Source: Escherichia coli
GTDB taxonomy: Bacteria; Pseudomonadota; Gammaproteobacteria; Enterobacterales; Enterobacteriaceae
DNA: 64,000 bases
Direction: 5' to 3' (one strand)
Assembly: GCF_046105845.1 (NCBI RefSeq)
Contig: NZ_CP151004.1
Shown: in pieces, positions 10,747 through 12,507 of the stretch
Layout of the letters: each line of letters begins with the position of its first letter
How positions within the stretch are numbered: the stretch's first letter is position 1
Translations under genes and position numbers: made by a program
The notes under the pieces: generated by a model
What the model was told of the DNA's origin: nothing
The model's input: only the letters and a program-made list of their open reading frames with translations
The model's database searches: none

Positions 10747-11505
10747 ATGAGCCTGACCCTCACACTTACTGGCACTGGCGGCGCACAGGGCGTTCCCGCA
10801 TGGGGCTGTGAGTGCGCGGCCTGCGCCAGAGCGCGGCGCTCACCGCAGTATCGCCGCCAGCCATGCAGCGGCGTCGTGAAGTTTAACGACGCGATCACCC
10901 TGATCGACGCCGGGCTGCACGATCTCGCCGATCGCTGGTCGCCCGGATCGTTCCAGCAGTTTTTGCTGACGCACTACCATATGGATCACGTGCAGGGGCT
11001 GTTTCCGCTGCGCTGGGGCGTGGGCGATTCGATCCCGGTCTACGGCCCGCCGGATGAACAGGGCTGCGACGATCTGTTTAAACATCCGGGCCTGCTTGAT
11101 TTCAGCCACACGATGGAACCGTTTGTGGTGTTTGATTTGCAGGGGTTGCAGGTCACGCCCCTGCCGCTCAACCATTCGAAACTCACTTTCGGCTATCTAC
11201 TGGAAACGGCACATAACCGGGTGGCGTGGCTGTCTGACACCGCAGGCCTGCCGGAAAAAACGCTGAAATTTTTACGCAATAATCAGCCACAGGTAATGGT
11301 GATTGATTGCAGCCACCCACCGCGCGAGGATGCACCGCGTAATCACTGTGATTTAAACACCGTGCTGGCGCTGAATCAGGTTATCCGCTCGCCACGGGTG
11401 ATTCTGACCCATATCAGCCACCAGTTTGATGCGTGGCTGATGGAAAACGCACTGCCGTCGGGGTTTGAGGCGGGGTTTGATGGGATGGAGATTGGGGTGG
11501 AGTGA
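10747..11505 (+). CDS. phnP: Metallo-beta-lactamase-fold phosphodiesterase PhnP
   Basis: ORF track 252 aa; HxHxDH motif ([10 protein letters not shown]). Confidence 0.95.
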
Positions 11506-11539
11506 TGGGTGAGGGGCGATGCCTGCTCCATACCCAACA

Positions 11540-11869
11540 TCATCGCCCATACTCATCTTCCATTCTCCGCTCTTCATCCTCCAGTTGCCGACGCTCCTGA
11601 TCAAGCTGGCGTTGGCGATCGTCCAGCTGCCTGCGGCGATCTTCAAACTGGCGGCGGCGATCGTCATATTGTCTGCGCCGATCGTCGTTCACTTCACGCT
11701 GCCAGCCGTCGTCGTGCGAATCTTCATAGTCTCGCCCACGGTCAGGGTTATAAGCATCGTTAATCGCCTGCTGAATATTGCCAATGGTGTCGTCGATAAT
11801 ATCGGCCTGGGCCGGAACGGTAGACAGCGTGAGCAGGGTGAATAAAAGAAATAGCGGAAAGCGTTTCAT
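11540..11869 (-). CDS. yjdP: YjdP, secreted highly charged repeat protein
   Basis: ORF track 109 aa; N-terminal signal peptide MKRFPLFLLFTLLTLSTVPAQA; GAGG RBS 8 nt upstream; DDRRRQ-type repeats. Confidence 0.8.
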   Translation of the reverse strand: MKRFPLFLLFTLLTLSTVPAQADIIDDTIGNIQQAINDAYNPDRGRDYEDSHDDGWQREVNDDRRRQYDDRRRQFEDRRRQLDDRQRQLDQERRQLEDEERRMEDEYGR

Positions 11870-11937
11870 TAGCCAACCTCAAAAAGAAACTCTATCCACA
11901 TTAGTCATTACTCATCCATGCAAGTAGTGGATGAATC

Positions 11938-12255
11938 TCAATTTCTCCGCTGCTCTATTGCCGTAATCGCCTCCACGCGTTGTTGATGACGACCGCCTTC
12001 GTACTGCGCGCCCAGCCACGCATCCACAATCATTTTTGCCAGTTCGAGGCCAACCACTCGTGAACCAAAAGCCAGTGCAACTTCACTGGCGTAATGCGGA
12101 TAATCAGTGCGCTCTGACGACCTGGTTTCTTTATCAATCCCCTCACTCATTGACCATGAATAAAAGGCTGGCACAGCAACGCAGAATCCTGCGGTGCCAG
12201 CGACATGACCGCCCATTGCTCCGGTACGTTTTTTAAAAAGAAACATCGGTTGCAT
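11938..12255 (-). pseudogene. rpiB: rpiB remnant (ribose-5-phosphate isomerase B) with diverged N-terminus and internal in-frame deletion
   Basis: ORF track 105 aa; C-terminal 43 aa FGSRVVGLELAKMIVDAWLGAQYEGGRHQQRVEAITAIEQRRN and segment SSERTDYPHYAS match RpiB as remembered, but the catalytic middle segment and native N-terminus are absent. Confidence 0.7.
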
Positions 12256-12507
12256 TGATAAATTGTGCTCAGTATTTGCCGAAGTACAATATATATAATA
12301 AATATATAAAATACCTCATATTATTTGCAGAGATAATAAACTCGCGTACTTTTCCCTCTTCAGCACAAATGCCTAATAAAATGGCTCGCTCCGCTCACAC
12401 TTCCACTTATTAAAGTCGCAAATTCCCAATTATGATAACGCCAGCTTCAAATGACGTATTTTGCATGGACTACATATTTACGACATAAATGATAAATGGA
12501 GATTTAT

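Follow-up and report, generated by a model that had tools for sequence, protein, structure and literature searches.

yjdP of Escherichia coli, a conserved minus-strand gene for a predicted exported protein of charged heptad repeats, and the non-coding frame opposite to it

Within a 64,000-nucleotide stretch of Escherichia coli DNA (the window), the minus-strand reading frame that converges on phnP is a real, conserved protein-coding gene, yjdP, and is translated from that strand; we put the probability of this at roughly 0.92, and hold the joint claim of gene identity, coding strand and architecture with comparably high confidence. The long plus-strand frame lying over it is a non-coding shadow of the Asp, Glu, Arg and Gln codons of yjdP. 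Both the gene and its repeat character are already catalogued. Coordinates of all features are compiled in Table 1.

Table 1. Features in and around yjdP, in window coordinates
Feature	Coordinates	Strand	Basis
yjdP CDS, 109 codons plus stop	11540..11869	minus	ORF list, NF041443, dN/dS
Sec signal peptide of signal peptidase I type, residues 1-22, MKR / FPLFLLFTLLTLSTV / PAQA	11804..11869	minus	sequence
Three degenerate 9-bp units, LFT-LLT-LST, in h-region	11819..11845	minus	alignments
Mature N-terminus DIIDDTIGNIQQAINDAY, residues 23-40, amphipathic, Ile/Ala at 3-4 spacing	11750..11803	minus	alignment, AlphaFold2
Acidic low-complexity linker, residues 41-61	11687..11749	minus	gappy alignment columns, AlphaFold2
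Six 21-bp units, heptads DDRRRQY DDRRRQF EDRRRQL DDRQRQL DQERRQL EDEERRM, residues 62-103	11561..11686	minus	Tandem Repeats Finder, unit comparison
C-terminal partial unit EDEYGR, residues 104-109	11543..11560	minus	ORF list, alignment
Shine-Dalgarno-like GAGG, 7 nt before ATG	11877..11880	minus	sequence
Conserved motif AATTGAGATTCATCCACTAC, 55-74 nt before ATG, candidate regulator site	11924..11943	minus	19-species alignment
Antisense shadow ORF, 108 aa, not a gene	11519..11845	plus	ORF list, resampling, orthologues, dN/dS
Stem-loop across the 34-bp gap between the phnP and yjdP stop codons	11482..11566	both strands folded	RNA folding

Results and Discussion

Gene identity and genomic context

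The open reading frame list reproduced both frames of the preliminary description at their exact coordinates, one of 109 residues on the minus strand and one of 108 residues on the plus strand. The minus-strand translation begins MKRFPLFLLFTLLTLSTVPAQADIID and closes with the heptads and the partial unit listed in Table 1, and the charged D/E/R/Q array that had been described as following a signal peptide is present in it. Residues 1–103 of this product match all of the NCBIfam model NF041443, "DDRRRQL repeat protein YjdP" (profile positions 1–101 of 101), with 147.7 bits and E = 9.9e-44; the model is an equivalog with a curated cutoff of 90 bits. A 330-bp CDS identical in position is annotated by RefSeq in the E. 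coli records examined, including a K-12 derivative, and over the complete E. coli genomes RefSeq gives yjdP at this place in 5,404 of 5,426. The Pfam family PF28054 'YjdP' appears in the precomputed annotation of near-identical (98%) homologues, and our own Pfam-A scan, in which PF28054 was apparently absent from the scanned copy, returned only sub-threshold coiled-coil noise. Weak NCBIfam matches to the FlbB collar protein, RNase Y and HmpF were rejected as compositional, being matches between charged helices, and the same applies to the names 'Skp family chaperone', 'RNase H-like nuclease' and 'membrane protein involved in colicin uptake' found among the source records. No relative at E ≤ 0.01 was found when the PDB sequences were searched with a 38-sequence YjdP profile, and a literature search returned papers that mention yjdP but none that studies the protein.

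Compared with its K-12 counterpart, the protein has the same length (109 residues), is 98% identical, with H52 and N61 in place of Arg and Ser, and is encoded at the same position convergent with phnP. The surroundings differ in two respects, since a repetitive element of about 112 bp that lies between phnP and yjdP in K-12 is absent from the window, and yjdP here adjoins a truncated rpiB; nothing essential distinguishes the gene itself from that of K-12. On the plus strand the order phnN-phnO-phnP precedes yjdP, with phnP at 10747..11505, so that the convergent genes end at 11505 and 11540, the position expected of an orthologue. The 5'-truncated rpiB remnant (11938..12255, minus strand) is a 105-residue frame that retains only the C-terminus of RpiB and abuts yjcS, which runs along the plus strand from 12496.

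Window positions 11938–12495 lack the als (allose) operon and the 5' portion of rpiB, and this arrangement with an rpiB remnant is common to 1,577 of 5,404 E. coli genomes; rpiB-alsR is intact in K-12. In EHEC the OI167 island with a hybrid kinase occupies this place, with a breakpoint within the yjdP signal-peptide codons. The spacer between the convergent stop codons (11506–11539) measures 34 bp in the window and 146 bp in K-12, the additional K-12 element being a G-quadruplex/hairpin element in the list of PMC5100583. The stem-loop that spans this spacer folds with −40.8 kcal/mol (z = −3.0) on the plus strand and −29.1 kcal/mol (z = −1.8) on the minus strand; it has no U-tract, and a terminator scan between phnP and yjdP called none.

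A 1-kb query around yjdP matched 5,404 of 5,426 complete E. coli genomes with 90–98% identity. The best complete-genome match reached 98.8% for yjdP and 98.2% for the 1-kb region, with none at or above 99% for yjdP, which seems to place the source strain slightly apart from the complete genomes sampled. An IS1 insertion interrupts yjdP in E. coli strain FLI21, so the gene is dispensable in at least some isolates; a second E. coli strain carries IS1 within the matched 1-kb region.

Beyond E. coli, a scan of one genome per species returned 47 yjdP loci, all of them in Enterobacteriaceae (Escherichia, Citrobacter, Klebsiella/Raoultella, Kosakonia, Kluyvera, Pluralibacter and some Enterobacter), and a profile search of 1.84 billion representative sequences gave only 79 matches at E ≤ 0.001; the matches to which a name could be given come from Buttiauxella, Cronobacter and Entomohabitans. 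The distant relatives share the YjdP layout, and a few metagenomic proteins likewise have a signal peptide, amphipathic segment, linker and heptads, the latter of the form ...QQRQLD.xRRQL.... Large eukaryote-like multi-repeat proteins were rejected as relatives, as they match the heptads only and the match is compositional. The gene is convergent with phnP in about 40 of the 47 species, and different genes stand upstream of it (among them rpiB, a hybrid histidine kinase and yjcS). The stop codons of phnP and yjdP abut in several species, so read-through from phn, an operon induced by Pho, would be antisense to yjdP. For Citrobacter koseri only residues 19–61 of YjdP were matched and no intact reading frame was recovered between rpiB and phnP; judging from the sequence, yjdP may be a pseudogene there.

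Coding strand

The minus strand, favoured in the preliminary description on the grounds of its signal peptide and ribosome-binding site, is the coding one. Against 12 orthologues of Escherichia and Citrobacter that align without gaps, window yjdP shows 718 differences, of which 481 lie at third positions of minus-strand codons, and Nei-Gojobori dN/dS was 0.05–0.24 in the minus-strand frame vs 1.1–2.4 in the codon-aligned plus-strand frame. The GAGG preceding the yjdP ATG fits the proposed ribosome-binding site, and GAG at this position is conserved in an upstream alignment of 19 species.

The plus-strand frame is real in the sense that it is open for 108 codons and rich in Leu, Ile, Val, Ala and Pro, in keeping with the long, hydrophobic antisense ORF first noted, but its length is unremarkable against chance and it is not conserved as a reading frame. 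It lies in the codon-aligned antisense register, in which stops arise only from sense TTA, CTA and TCA codons. YjdP has 9 Leu and 2 Ser residues, and the stop-making codons of Leu 6 and Leu 9 close the antisense frame. Elsewhere the frame is both hydrophobic and free of stops because D/E/R/Q codons are being read backwards: GAY yields Ile or Val, GAR Leu or Phe, CGN Ala, Ser, Pro or Thr and CAG Leu, none of them a stop. Of 20,000 synonymous recodings of YjdP, drawn according to the window's own codon usage, 38% left the antisense frame open over 101 codons or more, and 34% of 110-codon segments taken from long reading frames in the window were equally open in antisense. Across the 47 species the antisense frame is often open, and it is cut to 41–67 codons in several Citrobacter, Kluyvera and Enterobacter. 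Its product had no family match in the NCBIfam or Pfam-A scans.

It had also been anticipated that gene callers could pick either strand, and the K-12 version of the antisense frame does sit among deposited proteins, in a cluster of 36 members (e.g. 'hypothetical protein EcHS_A4332'). From its position directly after phnP we take this frame to be very probably the old 'phnQ', although literature searches on 'phnQ' and 'b4487' returned almost only unrelated papers and no record giving it that name. It resembles retired frames of the 'phnQ' or shadow type in its codon-aligned antisense register, in the pairing of a hydrophobic pseudo-product with a hydrophilic sense product and in its occasional annotation as a hypothetical protein. 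One could therefore ask whether the plus-strand frame is the true gene and yjdP the artefact. The ATG of the plus-strand frame lies 14 nt past the phnP stop with a GAGG-like sequence 4 nt upstream, some deposited genomes call it a hypothetical protein, and the phn cluster was in its original description counted as seventeen genes, phnA to phnQ (PMC4746698). This is nevertheless extremely improbable: the substitution pattern in practice refutes it, orthologues break the frame, such openness is expected in about a third or more of comparable cases (34–38%), and it is the opposite frame that matches a curated equivalog. Translation of both strands as a genuine overlapping antisense pair, for which the openness of the antisense frame over at least 100 codons in many orthologues might be cited, has in our view next to no chance of being correct either, as that openness follows from amino-acid composition alone, the antisense product gives no sign of purifying selection and the frame is interrupted in several species. 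Translation of yjdP from the minus strand is thus the reading retained.

Export signal

The signal peptide recognized in the preliminary description is of canonical Sec type. Such a signal is marked by a positive n-region, a hydrophobic h-region of 7–15 residues, small side chains at positions −3 and −1, and the lack of both a lipobox Cys and a twin-arginine motif; YjdP has the positive n-region, an h-region of 15 residues, A-x-A at −3/−1, and neither a Cys/lipobox nor a twin-arginine motif. The cleavage-site context A-x-A followed by DIIDD is conserved in 45 orthologues and is kept across genera in the alignments. These sequence features lead us to infer export of YjdP through the Sec pathway, with cleavage behind Ala 22.

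The most variable repeat of yjdP within E. coli is a 9-bp unit in this signal peptide and not the heptad array. In the window the h-region holds three degenerate 9-bp units, and at the same site other E. coli carry an in-frame 9-bp VNTR, TTCACGCTG (Phe-Thr-Leu), in 3–10 copies. The VNTR alleles retrieved were 339, 348, 357, 366 and 393 bp long; the perfect arrays of 3–10 units give proteins of 112, 115, 118, 121 and 130 residues with signal peptides of up to 43 residues. The perfect arrays belong to one E. coli lineage, with identical mature proteins and the same PhnP allele, and an expanded allele was present in about 10 of 100 evenly sampled complete genomes. As the array grows from 3 to 10 units, the hydrophobic core is extended from some 15 to some 36 residues. 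A cleavable signal peptide might thereby turn into an anchor that stays uncut in the inner membrane, so that strains would toggle between a rod soluble in the periplasm and one tethered to the membrane, with heptad insertions and deletions tuning its length; this combined proposal is a long shot. If true, it would amount to variation of localisation and length by repeat slippage, as opposed to on/off phase variation.

Mature protein

The mature protein of 87 residues contains 19 Asp, 19 Arg, 10 Gln and 9 Glu and no Lys, with a pI of 4.6, a net charge of about −9 and a GRAVY of −2.3. Its first segment, residues 23–40, is the most conserved block of the 38-sequence alignment; it is almost invariant across orthologues as DIIDD(A/T)IGNIQQAINDAY (also given as DIIDDAIGNIQQAI) and spaces its hydrophobic residues by 3–4 positions. 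The linker that follows varies between genera in both length and sequence. The heptads, six to seven in number, have the form (D/E)(D/Q)(R/E)(R/Q)R Q (L/F/Y/M).

An AlphaFold2 model computed from the 38-sequence alignment (mean pLDDT 73, pTM 0.37, low confidence outside the long helix) contains a single continuous helix from residue 54 to 108, with pLDDT 90–98 over approximately residues 61–100, in addition to a helix at 21–40 of low confidence and a stretch without regular structure at 41–53 (pLDDT about 50). The prediction thus places the heptads in a single uninterrupted helix some 55 residues long, salt-bridged at i/i+3 and i/i+4. Opposite-charge pairs at these spacings number 36 vs 21.1 ± 3.4 in shuffled sequences, a value reached in none of 5,000 shuffles, and like-charge pairs number 4 vs 20.2 expected. 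Conservation across genera extends to the heptad a position (Y68, F75, L82, L89, L96 and M103) and to the Gln before it. At d the residues are polar or charged, with Arg towards the N-terminus and Glu towards the C-terminus (R, R, R, E, E), unlike a canonical coiled coil, which has hydrophobic residues at both a and d.

Charged single alpha-helices of the CSAH or ER/K type are exemplified by the lever extensions of myosin-6 and myosin-10 and by caldesmon. YjdP resembles them in its period-7 blocks of acidic and basic residues, in its dense i/i+3 and i/i+4 salt bridges, with the excess of opposite-charge pairs that marks this class, and in its long, isolated predicted helix. It differs from them in using Asp and Arg without lysine where they use Glu and Lys, in conserving one hydrophobic residue every seven positions, so that a hydrophobic seam is present, and in being a free-standing, predicted exported bacterial protein instead of a linker inside a larger one. 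The heptad region could on this basis be a monomeric ER/K-like helix that serves as a spacer only, with no surface for interaction or oligomerisation. The extreme enrichment of salt bridges with depletion of like-charge pairs, the straight isolated helix of the AlphaFold2 model and the restriction of the common length variants to whole heptads all fit such a spacer; the hydrophobic residue of each heptad and its preceding Gln, unneeded in a pure spacer, are however conserved across genera, and YjdP has neither a second globular domain nor an anchor for a spacer to connect. We regard the spacer-only explanation as unlikely, if far from negligible. Combining a salt-bridge signature with a hydrophobic stripe, the region conforms neither to a classical coiled coil nor to a helix that is purely a spacer. 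The charge per unit along the helix runs +1, +1, +1, 0, 0, −2, −2, a gradient which, to speculate, would suit antiparallel self-association.

Repeat length variation

Tandem Repeats Finder reports a 21-bp period at 11601–11686 (3.1–3.5 copies, 75–78% matches) as well as a 42-bp period, so that the imperfect tandem DNA repeats of the preliminary description are real, if degenerate. Identity between 21-bp units is 13–18 of 21 positions among the first four and 7–12 of 21 for the last two, and a repeat search that relies on exact seeds missed the array because its units are too degenerate. Exact direct repeats of 9–10 bp are shared between units at offsets of 21 and 42 bp, namely GATCGCCGC (9 bp) and GACGATCGCC.

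Repeat number was compared across strains, as had been proposed, and alleles of 95, 102, 109 and 123 residues were found, the 123-residue form being that of E. albertii with a 14-residue duplication. The 102-residue forms comprise at least five different one-heptad deletions, and the commonest of them is an exact 21-bp deletion whose flanking units share the 9-bp direct repeat GATCGCCGC; it was found in about 18 of 5,405 complete-genome records at 95% identity or above, and is listed in 2,561 blocks of a large assembly index. The expectation that the array could expand or contract therefore stands to the extent that whole-heptad alleles exist, but they are rare in complete E. coli genomes. Changes in heptad number come about when 21 or 42 bp are lost or duplicated between the 9–10-bp direct repeats, and they disturb neither the reading frame nor the phase of the helix. 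Each of the four C-terminal heptads is recognizably retained from Escherichia through to Kluyvera, Kosakonia and Cronobacter, which argues that the array is old and that each unit is constrained, as opposed to rapidly homogenising.

Since two tandem repeats in yjdP are polymorphic between strains, the gene might be taken for a contingency locus in which copy number switches expression on and off. The 21-bp and 9-bp units are however both multiples of three, every variant seen is in frame with no frame-shifting allele among them, the heptad units are just 75–78% alike, and inactivation of yjdP was seen only through IS1 insertion. A switch of this kind is accordingly most improbable, and in-frame variation of length is the reading that we keep.

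Upstream region

The 5' leader of yjdP is unstructured (z = +1.95). Farther upstream a 20-nt block, AATTGAGATTC(C/A)TCC(G/A)CTAC (also given as AATTGAGATTCC), is conserved in all 19 aligned species, irrespective of which gene lies upstream. In the window this motif contains the stop codon of the rpiB remnant. A scan for sigma-70 promoters upstream of yjdP found no consensus promoter.

The RcsB box has been given as TN(G/A)GAN4TC(T/C)NA (PMC7913699). The window 14-mer TGAGATTCATCCAC matches 7 of its 8 specified positions, which is not significant as one-mismatch matches are expected by chance, and the corresponding 14-mer of the aligned species, TGAGATTC(A/C)TCC(A/G)C, also matches 7 of 8, with C for the last A in all species. 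The strict pattern had no match at the yjdP motif and one unrelated match in the window, which is at chance level. In RNA-seq data, yjdP mRNA rose 9.5- and 10.6-fold with a LolCDE inhibitor, in a table dominated by genes of the Rcs, Cpx and RpoS responses (osmB, bdm, wca, spy, cpxP, ivy, mliC and osmY) (PMC5105897). A table in PMC5217608 counts yjdP with the repressed genes and gives it an internal ChIP peak; this entry, whose regulator could not be read from the text, was left out of the argument. yjdP is possibly under Rcs control.

Possible function and significance

We propose, tentatively and at well under even odds, that YjdP leaves the cytoplasm by the Sec route and works in the periplasm as a stress-induced polyampholyte rod, binding itself or a partner in the manner of small stress proteins such as Spy and CpxP. 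After export and removal of the signal peptide, the heptad helix would form a rigid, strongly charged rod in the periplasm; the rod would bind itself or a partner through its hydrophobic stripe and the invariant N-terminal segment, and YjdP would act as an envelope-stress polyampholyte or a chaperone-like protein. The stress-protein role is drawn from co-induction in a single data set. YjdP resembles Spy, CpxP and ZraP in being small, predicted to be Sec-exported and all-helical, and LolCDE inhibition raises yjdP along with spy and cpxP. It differs from these proteins in being a tandem-repeat polyampholyte, where they form a helical cradle, and had no Pfam or NCBIfam match to the LTXXQ/CpxP-type family at E ≤ 1.

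The main value of the yjdP region is for annotation, and current understanding is unchanged by it. It shows cleanly how the gene of a highly charged repeat protein, read in reverse complement, yields a long hydrophobic frame, one that has misled gene callers. yjdP is at the same time a core E. coli gene, present in all but 22 of 5,426 complete genomes and raised about 10-fold by envelope stress, and its architecture, natural length variants and conserved upstream motif are cheap starting points for its characterisation.
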